The notes below the pieces were generated by a model. It was not told the origin of the DNA. It did no database searches and saw only the letters and a program-made list of their open reading frames with translations. Made by a program: the position numbers and the translations under genes. This document shows positions 9,483-63,641 of a stretch of DNA of 64,000 bases, piece after piece. The DNA is from an uncultured Verrucomicrobiae bacterium. GTDB taxonomy: Bacteria; Verrucomicrobiota; Verrucomicrobiia; Limisphaerales; UBA11358. The stretch's first letter is position 1. The number at the start of each line of letters is the position of its first letter. The stretch covers positions 566,857 to 630,856 of the forward strand of contig CAWDIX010000002.1 of NCBI GenBank assembly GCA_963802515.1. The letters run 5' to 3'.

Positions 9483-9559
9483 GCGCCCGTAGCTCAGATG
9501 GATAGAGCATCTGCCTTCTAAGCAGAGGGTCCCGCGTTCGACTCGCGGCGGGCGCGCCA
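9483..9559 (+). tRNA. tRNA-Arg (anticodon TCT), CCA encoded
   Basis: Hand fold: acceptor GCGCCCG/CGGGCGC, D arm GCTC-AGATGGATA-GAGC, anticodon arm TCTGC-CTTCTAA-GCAGA, T arm CCGCG-TTCGACT-CGCGG, discriminator G, CCA. Confidence 0.93.
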
Positions 9560-9928
9560 CGGTTGACGCAAAAGCGTTTCCCTTTGCAGGAGGCAAAGCG
9601 ACAAGCCCAAACTTTTTCGGCTCTGAAAAACAAACCGGAGACTTCACTTTTTCCTGCAACCGCGACCTGTCGCCGCCGCCGGGGATGAATTGAGCAAAAA
9701 AATCCGTCGCGCTTGTCGCGCCGTAGCTTGGAGAAGGCGGACGCCGGCTGGCTTCACCCCATGGCACGCCGAGCCGCAGAAAATCTTTGGTGTTCATAAC
9801 AACCAATAACCGTCAGCCAATAATCATCCGGCCGATTTGGAATCCCAACGGGATTCCATCATTCAGCCCAAGGTTGCGCCACAGGCGCTACCTTGGGTAC
9901 CTTACGCACCGTTTGCCTCGGCGCGGCA

Positions 9929-9961
9929 GCCTTCGCTCACTCCAAAGTCGCGAGCGAAGGC
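9929..9961 (-). other. 10-bp-stem hairpin abutting the 3' CCA of the tRNA-like pair
   Basis: gccttcgctc (9929-9938) pairs with gagcgaaggc (9952-9961) across a 13-nt loop. No U-tract follows, so it may be a processing or termination structure, or a repeat-family member. Confidence 0.4.
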
Positions 9962-10036
9962 TGGTGCCCACGGTCGGAGTTGCACCGACACAGTGCGCGT
10001 TTTAAGTGCGCTGCCTCTGCATCGGGCTACGTGGGC
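9962..10036 (-). tRNA. non-canonical tRNA-like gene, anticodon TAA, class-I (short variable arm), GTGC T-loop, CCA encoded
   Basis: Hand fold of the reverse complement: GCCCACG-TA-GCC(C)-GATGCAG-(A)GGC-A-GCGCA-CTTAAAA-CGCGC-ACTGT-GTCGG-TGCAACT-CCGAC-CGTGGGC-A-CCA. All stems pair except one A.C in the anticodon stem. Confidence 0.5.
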
Positions 10037-10041
10037 GAAAT

Positions 10042-10119
10042 TGGTAGCGCGTGAAGGATTTGCACCTTCAACACCTTCCCGTTCTGAGCGGGACGCCTCT
10101 GCTATTGGGCTAACGCGCC
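10042..10119 (-). tRNA. non-canonical tRNA-like gene, anticodon CAG, class-I (7-nt variable region), GTGC T-loop, CCA encoded
   Basis: Hand fold of the reverse complement: GGCGCGT-TA-GCC(C)-AATAGCAG-(A)GGC-G-TCCCG-CTCAGAA-CGGGA-AGGTGTT-GAAGG-TGCAAAT-CCTTC-ACGCGCT-A-CCA. There is a G1.U72 wobble; all other stem pairs are Watson-Crick. Confidence 0.5.
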
Positions 10120-25206: not shown

Positions 25207-25255
25207 GTTTGGAGTTCCGCGTTTACGCGGTCCGCCTGAAGGCGGGACTCCAAAC
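25207..25255. repeat. palindromic element, family P1 (outer stem GTTTGGAGT/ACTCCAAAC enclosing two GC hairpins)
   Basis: gtttggagt-tccgcgtttacgcgg-tccgcctgaaggcggg-actccaaac. It is intergenic, inside the oxidase gene string. Confidence 0.85.
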
Positions 25256-58948: not shown

Positions 58949-60613
58949 TCATTCCCGCGCCGTCTGCACCGGCAGCGCGGAGAGCGGCACGCGGCCGTTG
59001 GTTTTGGTGAAATATTCCGCCGACCATTCGTCGGCAAACAGCACGACGGGATTTTTGCCGGTGTCGTAGGCGACCCGCGCACCGGTCGGCAGCGACAGGG
59101 CGTCGAGATCATCTTCCTTCATGTCCACCGGCAGCCAGCGGACGACGGTCCACGGGGCGGATTCGAGGCGCGAGACCGCACCGTATTCGTGTTCGAGCCG
59201 GAATTGCACCACCTCGAACTGCAACGGGCCGACGGCGGCGAGCAAAGGCGTTTTGACCGACGAATTGCGAAGGTAAAGTGCCTGAATAACTCCTTCCTGC
59301 ATCAACTGGTCCAGGCCCTGGCGGAATTGCTTGAACTTCGCCGTGTTCGGATTGTGCAGATAGCTGAAGGCCTCGGGCGTGAAGCGCGGGATTTCCTTGT
59401 AAACGATTTTGGGATCGGTCGTGAGGGTATCGCCGATGCCGAAACTGTCGTGACCGACGAGGCCGATGACGTCGCCCGGCCAGGCTTCGTCCACGATTTC
59501 GCGTTCATTGCCGAAAAGTTTGTGGGAGCTGGAGAGGCGCACCTTCTTTTCCGACCGCGAATGATGCACCGTCATGTCGCGTTCGAACTTGCCCGAACAG
59601 ACACGAACGAACGCGATGCGGTCGCGATGCCGCGGGTCCATGTTCGCCTGAATCTTGAAGATGAAACCGGAGAAGGCGGGGTGTTCGGGACTGATAAAGT
59701 TTGGAGTTCCGCCTTCAGGCGGATTTGAATTTGCACGTTTTCCATTCGCCGGGCCGCCTGAAGGCGGAACTCTGAACCTGCCGCGCGGTCCGGGCGCGTG
59801 TTTCAGGAACCCGTCGAGCAAAAGCTGGACGCCGAAATTATTGAGGGCGCTGCCGAAGAACACCGGGGTCGTTCTTTCCGCAAGCACGGCGACGTCATCC
59901 CACTCGTGCCCGGCGTGTTCGAGCATTTCAAGTTCCTCGACCGTCCGGCGAAAGGTTTCGTCATCAAGTTGACCGCGCACGGCGGGATCATCCAGTCCGC
60001 CGACCTGCACCGGGGCGCGATACTGGCCGCCCGTCGTGCGTTCGAAGAGATGCATCAGCTTCGTCTGCCGGTCATACACGCCCTGAAACTCGAAGCCGTT
60101 GCCGATGGGCCAGTTCACCGGGAAAGCGCCGATGCCGAGCACGCGTTCCAGTTCATCGAGTAGCGCGAGCGGGTCCTTCATCGGGCGGTCGCACTTGTTC
60201 ATGAAGGTGAAGATGGGCACGCCGCGCTGGCGGCAAACCTCGAACAGTTTGCGTGTCTGCGGTTCGATGCCCTTGGCCGAGTCAATCACCATCACCACCG
60301 AATCCACGGCGGTGAGCACCCGGTAGGTGTCTTCGGAAAAATCCTTGTGGCCCGGCGTGTCGAGCAGGTTGAGACGGTAACCGCTGTAATCGAATTGAAG
60401 GACCGTGGAACTGATCGAAATGCCGCGTTTTTTCTCCAGCTCCATCCAGTCGGACGTGGTGGCGGCCTGGTTCCGGCGCGCGGTGACCGAGCCGGCGAGC
60501 TGCACCGCGCCGCCATACAGCAACAGCTTTTCCGTCAGCGTGGTTTTGCCCGCGTCCGGATGCGAGATGATGGCGAACGTGCGCCGTTTCTGGATTTCTT
60601 CCGCAATGCTCAC
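58949..60613 (-). CDS. prfC: peptide chain release factor 3 (carrying an in-frame repeat insertion)
   Basis: RRTFAIISHPDAGKTTLTEKLL...DTPGHKDFSEDT...FMNKCDR...FIFKIQANMDPRHRDRIAFVRV. The GTG at 60613 is preferred over the TTG at 60652. Confidence 0.92.
   Translation of the reverse strand: MSIAEEIQKRRTFAIISHPDAGKTTLTEKLLLYGGAVQLAGSVTARRNQAATTSDWMELEKKRGISISSTVLQFDYSGYRLNLLDTPGHKDFSEDTYRVLTAVDSVVMVIDSAKGIEPQTRKLFEVCRQRGVPIFTFMNKCDRPMKDPLALLDELERVLGIGAFPVNWPIGNGFEFQGVYDRQTKLMHLFERTTGGQYRAPVQVGGLDDPAVRGQLDDETFRRTVEELEMLEHAGHEWDDVAVLAERTTPVFFGSALNNFGVQLLLDGFLKHAPGPRGRFRVPPSGGPANGKRANSNPPEGGTPNFISPEHPAFSGFIFKIQANMDPRHRDRIAFVRVCSGKFERDMTVHHSRSEKKVRLSSSHKLFGNEREIVDEAWPGDVIGLVGHDSFGIGDTLTTDPKIVYKEIPRFTPEAFSYLHNPNTAKFKQFRQGLDQLMQEGVIQALYLRNSSVKTPLLAAVGPLQFEVVQFRLEHEYGAVSRLESAPWTVVRWLPVDMKEDDLDALSLPTGARVAYDTGKNPVVLFADEWSAEYFTKTNGRVPLSALPVQTARE
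59699..59777. repeat. family P1 palindromic element inside prfC
   Basis: gtttggagttccgccttcaggcgga ... gccgcctgaaggcggaactctgaac. On the minus strand it is translated in frame as ...[27 protein letters not shown]... Confidence 0.85.
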
Positions 60614-60766
60614 AAGAGCCGTAAACGATAACAGAGAATCAGGCCGGAACAAGGTTTGGATTTTGGCGATCGAACTTCATTTTAACCACGGATAACACGG
60701 ATGAACGCGGATTCAGTTCAACGAAACATGCAATTATAGCGGTTTAACTAAAACCGTGGCCGTCGG

Positions 60767-60989: not shown

Positions 60990-63641
60990 TTATATCTTCT
61001 CAAACACCAATTCGTCCCCTTTGGCGTTGACCTTGATTTTGTCCCCCGGCTTGAACTCGCCTTCGAGCAGGCGCATCGAAAGCGGGTTGAGGATTCGTTC
61101 CTGCACGGCGCGTTTGAGCGGGCGGGCGCCGAATTGCGGGTCGTATCCTTCCTTCGCCAGCAGCTTCTTCGCCGCGGCGTCCACGTCGAGCGTGAGATTT
61201 TGTTGCGCCAGCCGTTCCTTGAGTCTTCCCAGTTGGATGTCCACGATGCGCTCAATTTCGCTTTCGTCGAGGCTCTGGAAAATGATGACGTCGTCCACCC
61301 GGTTCAGGAATTCCGGCCGGAAATGCCGTTTCAACTCGGCCATAATGCGGTCGTGCAATTCGTTCGGAGTTCCGCCTTTAGGCGGTTTGTCCGAACCACG
61401 ACGACCCGATTCCGCCTGAAGGCGGGACTCCAAACTTTCTTGAATCAGGTGCGAGCCGAGGTTGCTGGTCATGATGACGATGGTGTTCTTGAAATCCACC
61501 GTCCTCCCCTGCCCGTCGGTGAGCCGGCCATCATCCAACACCTGCAACAGCACGTTGAACACGTCGTGATGCGCCTTCTCAATTTCGTCGAACAACACCA
61601 CCGAATATGGCCGGCGGCGCACCGCCTCGCTCAACTGCCCGCCTTCCTCGTAACCGACATAGCCCGGCGGCGCGCCAATGAGCCGCGCGACGGTGTGTTT
61701 CTCCATGTATTCGCTCATATCAATGCGAATCATCGCGTTTTCGTCGTCGAACAAAAATTCCGCCAGCGCGCGGGCGGTCTCGGTCTTGCCGACGCCGGTC
61801 GGGCCGAGAAAGATGAACGAGCCGATGGGCCGGTTCGGGTCCTGCAATCCGCTCCGCGCCCGGCGCACGGCGTCGGACACGGCCTTGATGGCTTCTTTCT
61901 GGCCGACCACGCGCTGCGCGAGCCGTTCCTCCATCTTCACCAGCTTTTGCCGCTCGCCCTCGAGCATCCGCGAAACCGGGATGTGCGTCCATGACGCCAC
62001 AACCTTGGCAATATCCTCGTCCGTGACTTCCTGGCGGAGCAAGCTGCTCCTGCCACCTGCAGGCGAGACGCCTGCACCACTACTTTCCAGCTTCACGAGT
62101 TTCTTTTCCAAATCGGGAATCTTGCCGTATTGAATTTCCGCCGACTTCGTCAAATCGCCTTTGCGTTGCGCCTGTTCCAGTTCGAGTTTTGCCTGCTCGA
62201 GTTGCGATTGCACCACACTCACGGCATTGACGGCGGCCTTTTCATTCTGCCATTGGGCGGTGAGCGCCTTGGACTTGTCCTTGAGATTGGCAGTTTCCTT
62301 GTCAATCAGCTTGAGCCGTTCCTTGCTGGCAGCGTCCTTTTCCTTGGCCAACGACGTGCGCTCGATTTCCAATTGCAAAATCTGCCGGTCCAACTGGTCG
62401 AGTTCAGTCGGCTTGGAATCCAGTTCCATTTTGATGCGCGACGCCGCCTCGTCCACGAGGTCAATCGCCTTGTCCGGGAGGAACCGGTCGGTGATGTAGC
62501 GATGGGACAACATCGCCGCCGCCACGAGCGCCGAATCCTGAATCCGCACGCCATGATGAACTTCGTATCGCTCCTTCAACCCGCGTAAAATTGCGATGGT
62601 CGCTTCGACGGTCGGCTCCTCCACCTTGACCGGCTGGAAACGGCGTTCGAGCGCCGGGTCTTTCTCGATGTGCTTGCGGTATTCGTCGAGCGTCGTCGCG
62701 CCCACGCAACGGAGTTCGCCGCGCGCGAGTTGCGGCTTCATGATATTGGCCGCGTCCGTCGCGCCTTCCGCCGCGCCAGCACCGACGATGGTGTGCAACT
62801 CGTCAATGAACAGAATGATTTTGCCTTCGCTGGCGACGATTTCCTTGAGAAACGCCTTGAGCCGGTCCTCGAATTCACCGCGATATTTGGCGCCGGCAAT
62901 CATCGCGCTCAGATCCATTGCCACCAGCCGCTTGTTCTTGAGCGATTCCGGCACGTCACCGCTCACGATGCGCCGCGCCAGGCCTTCGGCGATGGCGGTC
63001 TTGCCCACGCCGGGTTCACCGATCAACACCGGATTGTTTTTCGTGCGGCGCGTAAGCACCTGCATGACGCGGCGGATTTCCTCGTCACGGCCGATGACCG
63101 GGTCAATCTTGCCCTGCCGCGCCAGCGCGGTAAGGTCGCGGCCGTATTTGTCGAGCGCCTGAAATTTGGCTTCGGGATTTTCGTCGGTCACGCGCTGGTT
63201 GCCGCGCAATTCGGCGAGCGCCTTCAGTACGGCATCACGTTTCAAGCCGTGCCTGGCGAAAATCTTTTTCAGCGCCGAACCGCCGCCGTCCAGCAGGCCA
63301 AGCAGCAGATGTTCAGTACTGACATAATCGTCCTTGAGCTTGGTCGCCTCGGATTGCGCGGCATCGAGCGCCTTCTGCAAATCGCGGCCGGCGTAGGCAT
63401 CGCCGGCGCCCTGGACCTTGTGCCGGCGGGCGAGTTCGGCTTCCAACTCCGGTTTCAGCTTCGCGACCGGCACGCCGATGCGTTCGAGCAGGTCGGGGAT
63501 GAGGCTCTCGGTCTGCCCGATGAGCGCGAGCGCGAGATGTTCGCCGTCGAGTTCCTGATGCGAATGCTCGCGGGCGATGCGTTGCGCCTCCTGCAAGGCT
63601 TCCTGTGATTTGAGAGTAAGTTTCTCCGGTTGCATAACCAT
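60990..63641 (-). CDS. clpB: ATP-dependent chaperone/disaggregase ClpB (carrying an in-frame repeat insertion)
   Basis: [15 protein letters not shown] and [15 protein letters not shown] (two Walker A motifs), coiled-coil middle domain, [20 protein letters not shown]. The second ATG at 63635 may be the true start. Confidence 0.95.
61366..61435. repeat. family P1 palindromic element inside clpB
   Basis: ggagttccgcctttaggcgg - tttgtccgaaccacgacgacccgatt - ccgcctgaaggcgggactccaaac. On the minus strand it is translated in frame as ...[23 protein letters not shown]... Confidence 0.85.

Follow-up and report, generated by a model that had tools for sequence, protein, structure and literature searches.

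The clpB gene of an uncultured Verrucomicrobiae bacterium, which lies in the 64,000-nt stretch of contig CAWDIX010000002.1 analysed here (the window), carries a 74-nt palindromic element in frame. Very probably, this insert is a REPIN, that is, a doublet of two inverted REP (repetitive extragenic palindrome) hairpins, and belongs to a REP family that bears the tail GTTYGGAGT and is linked to a REP-associated tyrosine transposase (RAYT). The in-frame insertion of such elements is already known; the REP family itself and its conserved intragenic copy are the new details. The host gene and the parts of its insert are located in the window as follows:

60990..63641, minus strand: clpB, encoding 883 amino acids (aa), with the Walker A/B, sensor-1, FRPEFLNR and GARPLKR motifs all intact
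61362..61435, minus strand: the element, read as a REPIN (REP doublet), in frame in clpB, 25 aa, ClpB residues about 736-760
61412..61435, minus strand: 5′ arm in the gene sense, GTTTGGAGT-C-CCGCCTTCAGGCGG (9-nt tail, free base, 6-bp hairpin), translated as LESRLQA and identical in five lineages
61386..61411, minus strand: 26-nt spacer, translated roughly as SGRRGSDK, varying freely in sequence with its length fixed
61362..61385, minus strand: 3′ arm in the gene sense, CCGCCTAAAGGCGG-A-ACTCCGAAC, translated as PPKGGTPN, its sole change among the five lineages being at the free N

On the plus strand, the element reads GTTCGGAGTTCCGCCTTTAGGCGG (61362-61385), a 26-nt spacer (61386-61411) and CCGCCTGAAGGCGGGACTCCAAAC (61412-61435). 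The two 24-nt arms are mutual reverse complements, and each of them has its own small hairpin. The arm consensus, GTTYGGAGT-N-CCGCCTNNAGGCGG, resolves into a 24-nt REP unit made of the 9-nt tail (GTTYGGAGT), one free base and the 6-bp/2-nt hairpin CCGCCT-NN-AGGCGG. A preliminary description of the window, made from the letters alone, had placed the element at 61366-61435; its palindrome, 26-nt spacer and end were right, but its start fell 4 bases inside the terminal repeat, the true one being 61362. The same description had put the element in frame within the second AAA+ module of ClpB, which is borne out by the translation, free of stops, and by the structure matches described below. As mRNA, the element is computed to fold into a long hairpin (−41.4 kcal/mol, z = −4.9). 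In Rfam, it belonged to no family: the single hit, to a plant miRNA hairpin, reached 26 bits by chance against a gathering score of 90. In the whole window, Rfam recognised only three tRNA genes, at 9483-10119.

Judged by its sequence, the host gene is that of the ClpB/Hsp104 disaggregase. The product matched the solved ClpB structures 6dju, 1qvr and 4d2q over residues 4-880 (E = 0 to 5e-303), and the expected ClpB set of Pfam domains (Clp_N, two AAA+ modules and the middle domain were sought) was present in homologues. The comparison set consisted of the closest 120 proteins listed, 88-93% identical, from metagenome-assembled genomes (MAGs) labelled Limisphaerales or Verrucomicrobiota, and by these closest relatives the host is a verrucomicrobium related to Limisphaerales. 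The insert falls within NBD2, the second nucleotide-binding domain, where it follows the sensor-1 TSN motif and precedes FRPEFLNR. The preliminary description had given the linker at this place as about 15-20 residues shorter in the E. coli and Thermus proteins. The alignment with Thermus ClpB (1qvr) indeed leaves 16 residues unmatched precisely where the insert lies, and many of the 120 listed orthologues lack it, their base-form loop being 28 aa long (SPIIQEYFMDGRTDKSSHQTMEDKVMAE) vs. 40 aa in the window. In the base-form clpB DNA (L119), the palindrome is absent at the insert position. We also compared 73 diverse ClpBs obtained in a metagenome scan with the ClpB C-terminus (54-74% identical among the matches listed); here, the NBD2 loop ranged from 15 to 54 aa among the matches listed, which shows that it may vary freely in length. 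The AlphaFold2 model built for the full-length ClpB was poor (mean predicted local distance difference test score, pLDDT, 54.6) because its alignment holds only sequences at least 88% identical; in this model, residues 746-759 form a low-confidence coil, with helices 730-745 and 760-773 on either side.

The element is not alone in the window. The preliminary description had proposed that one palindromic family is inserted in frame in both clpB and prfC, and both the repeat counts against shuffled sequences and the translations agree with this. The window contains CCGCCTNNAGGCGG 6 times vs. 0.32 expected (none of 100 shuffles reached 6), the 20-mer arm with up to 3 mismatches 9 times vs. 0.20 expected, and 7 arms vs. 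0-3 in shuffles. In total, four family copies were found, all of them doublets and three of them within about 1.8 kb. Besides the clpB copy, the relevant features are:

25207..25255, no strand assigned: intergenic short-form REPIN with arms 1 nt apart, one arm having the covarying hairpin CCGCGTTTACGCGG
58949..60652, minus strand: prfC (peptide chain release factor 3), which carries the other intragenic copy of the window, its true start probably lying 13 codons downstream of the start of the open reading frame (ORF), by comparison with L201
59699..59777, minus strand: REPIN of the same family with a 31-nt spacer, in frame in prfC, 26 aa
60768..60840, no strand assigned: variant REPIN in the prfC-clpB intergenic region, GGAGCG-CGGGCTTCAGCCCG ... 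GCGGCGTGAACGCCGC-GCTCC, with the tail GGAGCG and the hairpins GCGGGCTTCAGCCCGC / GCGGCGTGAACGCCGC

Four copies in 64 kb make the high copy number suggested in the preliminary description plausible, and other copies do exist beyond the three more in the window. A scan of one genome per species with GTTTGGAGTNCCGCCTNNAGGCGG found the exact 24-nt arm in at least 118 stretches of other genomes. The titles of the arm-bearing records, which are MAG labels only, name Verrucomicrobiota, Planctomycetota, Acidobacteriota (Blastocatellia, Pyrinomonadaceae), Lentisphaerae, Haliangiales, 'Proteobacteria' and others, and among the matches listed several MAGs gave 3-4 separate contigs, each with the arm. A partner tail lay no more than 170 nt away for 110 of the 135 arm matches in other genomes, the spacers being mostly 6-31 nt long; over the whole family, spacer lengths run from 0 to 137 nt.

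Many of these doublets are heterodimers, in which the two hairpins differ and each arm folds on its own with compensatory changes. In the partner arm, which was unconstrained by the search, 86% of the cells were paired vs. 72% in shuffles, and double changes were seen in 38 cells vs. 9.9 expected, a number reached in none of 500 shuffles. Partner-arm variants that keep the stem include CCGCGTAAACGCGG, CCGGCTAAAGCCGG, CCTGCTAAAGCAGG and CCGCATAAATGCGG. The hairpin is under selection. As to the ends, no direct repeat of 3-6 nt was found in 91 well-defined elements, 2-nt repeats occurred at chance rate, and the flanks of these 91 elements had no conserved base. The absence of a target-site duplication fits the chemistry of HUH/Y1 enzymes and not a miniature inverted-repeat transposable element (MITE) of the DDE type. 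Taken together, the tail with its hairpin, the inverted doublets, the independently folding arms of the heterodimers and the clean ends allow us to assign the family to the REP/REPIN type rather than to DDE-type MITEs. A plasmid or phage vehicle is not supported, since blastn against plasmids and phages gave no match and the IMG/VR viral contigs gave only 4 stretches.

Two further arrangements of the doublet were noticed in other genomes. At L068:334-700, it occurs in a tandem array with a 95-nt period and four same-strand arms, resembling a cluster of bacterial interspersed mosaic elements (BIME-like). In L020, L040, L091 and L092, the doublet is nested in a larger inverted repeat, CTTGACACTGTCC...GGACAGTGTCAAG(A/C)TGCGCCCC, which may represent a composite element. 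Two other classes were considered and dropped: an integron attC site, the order of the core sites being wrong, and a repeat of the CRISPR type (clustered regularly interspaced short palindromic repeats), the copies being dispersed doublets and not arrays, save for the one tandem cluster in L068.

The family has a candidate cognate transposase. All-against-all clustering of ORFs near the dispersed copies revealed no enriched family, as expected because the elements are non-autonomous, and a hidden Markov model of 120 RAYT homologues gave one weak match near copies (E = 0.028), which pointed to L042 (Ca. Udaeobacter). There, a 206-aa ORF with the HUH (LPNHYHALLE) and Tyr (LNYVHHNP) motifs is preceded by a 5′ arm 20 nt upstream of its start and followed by a 3′ arm 39 nt past its stop. 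This ORF matched NCBIfam NF047646, 'REP-associated tyrosine transposase', with E = 1.3e-21 over profile positions 10-146 of 146, and has 1749 relatives at E <= 1e-10, some of which were named REP-associated tyrosine transposase by JGI (Joint Genome Institute). The same arm stands upstream of three independent homologues, 70-75% identical, in L209, L212 and L216: its distance from the start is 18-19 nt in L209 and L216, whereas in L212 it overlaps the longer ORF called there. Downstream of the RAYT in these three loci, REP/REPIN arms ending in ACTCCRAAC were found. The REPtron arrangement, that is, a RAYT flanked by these arms, was thus present in four of the four independent loci (L042, L209, L212, L216). 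Relative to the start of the 206-aa form, the 5′ arm is about 18-20 nt upstream in each of them, and its hairpin may be part of the 5′ untranslated region or control region of the RAYT gene.

In L201 (prfC at L201:12916-14520), the only close relative examined, PrfC is nearly identical but lacks the prfC insertion, and this insert-free prfC adjoins a clpB with the clpB insert. From this comparison, the prfC copy looks like a later, lineage-specific gain. Movement of the element by a RAYT is suggested indirectly by this difference in presence. The sequence TTTC occurs in both empty sites, prfC and clpB; two sites are too few to define a target motif.

We propose the following mechanism. The REPIN would be non-autonomous, and a RAYT of the HUH/Y1 (IS200/IS605) type would recognise each of its hairpins in single-stranded form, cleave the DNA at the conserved tail and copy the doublet elsewhere without duplicating the target site. 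One such copy would have landed in the variable-length NBD2 loop between the sensor-1 strand and the helix before FRPEFLNR. Being open in the frame used, it would be translated in a loop 12 aa longer than the base form, an insert that ClpB would have tolerated.

To assess the age of the clpB copy, we compared as DNA the clpB genes with the same type of loop (variant A), namely those of the window and of L201-L204 (five lineages). They have in common the insertion point, the reading frame, the 26-nt spacer length and the linked downstream flank (ELHDRIMAE), and were therefore treated as bearing one orthologous insertion. Nucleotide identity among the five was 83-88% for the gene and 42-88% for the spacer vs. 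98-100% for the 48 nt of the arms. At amino-acid-invariant codons, synonymous variation was found in 1 of 16 arm codons vs. 394 of 695 (57%) in the rest of the gene. P is about 1.5e-6 for no variable arm codon and about 3e-5 for up to one. The one arm change that was seen sits at the free N position of the family. Such low synonymous variation indicates that what is kept in the arms is the nucleic acid rather than the peptide. A relic undergoing plain decay would not show it, whereas it would follow from continued selection or from homogenisation to the REP consensus. Most likely, the arms stay conserved because the REP consensus itself is selected or homogenised at the level of DNA or RNA, and not because of selection on the peptide. 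On these comparisons, the clpB copy appears to be old and constrained, having been passed down in several lineages related to Limisphaerales.

It is conceivable, though unlikely, that the host has taken over the intragenic copy, so that the arm hairpin in the clpB DNA or mRNA is selected for a function in cis, such as translational pausing between the NBD2 subdomains, mRNA stability or processing, or heat-responsive control. The freezing of the arms at synonymous sites while the spacer and the gene diverge, the strong mRNA hairpin computed above, and the retention of the copy in at least five lineages and in variant-A orthologues among the matches listed all speak for such co-option. However, the conserved positions are those of the family consensus and the variable site is its free position, which upkeep by a RAYT or by gene conversion predicts equally well; besides, most close relatives have no insert or have unrelated inserts in the same loop, and Rfam has no family at the element.

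We regard it as quite unlikely that there was no single inherited insertion, the site having been hit independently or the loop allele having spread by recombination, with the identical arms belonging to young copies. Variant-A proteins are indeed interspersed with base-form and other variants in the ClpB tree, relatives have at least 12 different inserts in the same loop, and the nearest relatives of the window ClpB outside the loop (distance 0.039-0.048) carry other variants. Nevertheless, the identity of the point, the frame and the 26-nt spacer length, the partial likeness of the spacers (AATCGG...AAA) and the common flank are hard to reconcile with repeated hits by a family whose spacers vary as widely as stated above, and young copies of a common donor should not have spacers that are 42-62% identical. 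A conventional MITE, i.e., a deletion derivative of an insertion sequence that a DDE transposase mobilises by recognising its 24-nt terminal inverted repeats, would explain the repeats, the shortness and the many copies, but is highly improbable given 91 copies free of target-site duplications of 3 to 6 nt, the many heterodimers whose arms fold alone with compensatory changes, a Y1/HUH RAYT as the only arm-flanked gene found (4 of 4 loci), and the lack of enrichment of any other ORF family near the copies.

Several observations weigh against the reading of the insert as an inherited REPIN of a RAYT-linked family. Its tail is GTTTGGAGT or GTTCGGAGT and not the classic GTAG tetranucleotide. The RAYT of L042 scored 77 bits with NF047646, whose curated cut-off is 80, and had no Pfam match at E <= 0.01, PF01797 included. 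No RAYT was found in the 64-kb window, and the link to the transposase rests on other genomes; it is established for the family and would extend to the source genome by inference only. The insert of 74 nt lengthens the loop by only 36 nt and is not a clean addition to the base loop, which implies that about 12 loop residues were replaced or that the ancestral loop was different. The scatter of variant-A ClpBs in the tree, a neighbour-joining one, makes recombination or repeated events possible. Finally, a simple selfish-DNA model leaves the conservation of the arms over about 15% nucleotide divergence unexplained, which hints at a function.

To place the clpB and prfC copies among other intragenic ones, 124 copies were sampled. 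A long ORF contained 27 of them and 97 were in none, while about 13 (about 10%) were verified by Pfam as intragenic. Coding DNA makes up most of a bacterial genome, and the intragenic share is far below this fraction; the family is therefore depleted in genes and not enriched, so that the 'preference for coding DNA' offered in the preliminary description has to be given up. Only open, harmless copies survive inside genes. The verified hosts are an aldehyde dehydrogenase, a GCV_T-family protein, a glycogen-debranching enzyme, a protein kinase, UvrA, a UvrD-type helicase, a class II tRNA synthetase, a pseudouridine synthase, a U32 peptidase, GH2 and GH9 proteins, and others. A 1277-aa BNR-like protein of L006 has two in-frame doublets, SFGVPASAG...PPEGGTPN near residue 400 and EFGVPAPAG...PPEGGTPN at 718-750.

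The frame in which the arms are read is biased over the family. All 12 Pfam-verified intragenic doublets of other genomes have a 5′ arm that encodes FGVPPSGG. For the 3′ arm, two readings were seen, PPEGGTPN and RLKAELQT, and TGA/TAA in the hairpin loop blocks the third frame. The 'one preferred frame and orientation' of the preliminary description holds in this family-wide sense but not for the two genes for which it was put forward: the 5′ arm of the clpB copy is in the minority frame (LESRLQA) and that of the prfC copy in the common one (FRVPPSGG), only the 3′ arm being in the same frame in both (PP[K/E]GGTPN). The peptides on which that argument drew are both present, GGTPN in common with the prfC insertion and ESRLQA in common with the spurious ORF over 25207-25255. 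Its orientation part carries little meaning for a near-perfect palindrome, and a match to a spurious ORF is uninformative.

The family resembles the known REP/REPIN-RAYT systems (PMC2817692, PMC3116915, PMC6006769) in its hairpin with a conserved 5′ tail, the inverted doublets with a variable spacer, the dispersed multicopy occurrence without target-site duplication, and the HUH/Tyr transposase of roughly 200 aa flanked by the repeats (REPtron); in both, the copies are mostly extragenic, the clpB copy being one of an intragenic minority. It differs from them in the tail, which is GTTYGGAGT here vs. GTAG, and in its RAYT, which has no PF01797 match and is 3 bits under the NCBIfam cut-off. In addition, the arm was found here in several phyla by record title, whereas classic REPINs have been described as lineage-specific and vertically inherited; the RAYT classes have a patchy distribution that is consistent with horizontal transfer (PMC6006769).

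The intragenic copies have close counterparts in the 'REP-decorated proteins' of Di Nocera et al. 2013 (PMC3733652), who reported REPs of the GTAG and CGTC types that lie within genes and encode 20-30 aa. Such intragenic REPs were most frequent in the verrucomicrobium Opitutus terrae, with UvrA, UvrD, tRNA synthetases and pseudouridine synthases among the hosts (PMC3733652). Both sets comprise in-frame singlets or dimers, and the hosts overlap in UvrA, a UvrD-type helicase, a tRNA synthetase and a pseudouridine synthase. The GTTYGGAGT-tail family was not found in the text or supplements of that paper, nor were ClpB and PrfC found among the REP hosts of its supplementary tables; unlike here, evidence for nucleotide-level conservation of an orthologous intragenic copy is not given there (PMC3733652). 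The TIRYT/TIRtron systems reported in Acidobacteria (PMC3733652) also have a RAYT-like transposase, flanked by partly self-complementary inverted repeats longer than REPs, but their consensus GGGGWSAS does not match, and the arms here, each a tail plus its own hairpin, are REP-like. Full-text literature searches with the element peptides and the tail sequence gave nothing relevant.

The Rickettsia palindromic elements (RPEs) are said to occur in frame in essential genes, where they are translated and tolerated, as reportedly described by Ogata et al. in 2000, a study cited in PMC3733652; RPE-1 is reportedly longer, at 100-150 bp. RPEs are not known to have an associated transposase, whereas a candidate cognate RAYT was identified for the present family. 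They are found in an unrelated phylum, and the likeness is functional only.

ClpB of relatives has two places where inserts recur. In the NBD2 loop (window 61336-61455), at least 12 different inserts of 31-44 aa were counted among the 120 listed orthologues, and their carriers are dispersed across the ClpB tree. At the DNA level, variants B (L120) and D (L218) proved to be GTAG...CTAC doublets, and variants C and F have arm peptides in common with them at the protein level. In variant E (L219), the loop contains a run of the heptamer CCGAACT, which overlaps the REP tail and encodes a PNSELRT repeat; a similar run, (AATCAAACC)n, stands beside an element in L017. The second place is the linker between the middle domain and NBD2, where the window clpB bears another insert:

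62058..62083, minus strand: second, unrelated REP-like insert, GTAG-TGGT-GCAGGCG-TCT-CGCCTGC, in the middle-domain/NBD2 linker, 11 aa, the linker being 4 aa longer than in the base form

In relatives, this linker holds GTAG..CTAC doublets (e.g., in L219) or a whole RAYT. A complete RAYT (Pfam PF01797) lies in frame in the linker of six ClpB orthologues of 1120-1149 aa (P0018, P0088, P0102, P0103, P0105 and P0108); these RAYTs are 80-90% identical to one another, and all six retain intact HUH (PNHVH) and Tyr (YIxxxP) motifs. The one copy that we read as DNA, in L120 (L120:6001-9441, gene nt about 1545-2380), has GTAG-CGGCGACG-CCT-CGTCGCCG REPs on both sides of the RAYT. Full-text literature searches found no paper that mentions ClpB together with a RAYT, and the embedded RAYT is more unusual than the clpB REPIN itself. 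As a cognate enzyme for the GTTYGGAGT family, it was rejected: tblastn on the 118 element loci and the window gave no match, and it belongs to a different, GTAG-type REP family. None of the element-derived peptides was found in 120 homologues of the ClpB-embedded RAYT.

Repeated acceptance of inserts by the loop and the linker, the intact copies and the RAYT embedded in six lineages invite the idea, rather improbable in our view, that ClpB is a long-term harbour for REP-RAYT systems. If this is true, the transposase would be made from or with the transcript of a heat-shock chaperone, and the activity of the REPIN/RAYT system would be coupled to stress; far from being relics, the conserved arms inside the gene would then be functional sites for RAYT binding or mRNA structure.

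For annotation, the finding means that the ClpB loop and the matching PrfC segment derive from mobile DNA and not from the ancestral protein, and that peptide motifs, including RLKAELQT, flag the element in many unrelated proteins of several phyla by record title. For protein engineering, it may be useful that the ClpB loop and linker appear to accept from 12 to about 290 extra residues. A REP family without the GTAG tail, not found in the literature searched, is now paired with a RAYT, and the occurrence of its arm in several phyla, as given by record titles, bears on the question of whether REPIN-RAYT systems are inherited only vertically. The orthologous intragenic copy in clpB, with its static arms and drifting spacer, offers a natural experiment in which selection on DNA or RNA structure may be told apart from selection on protein.

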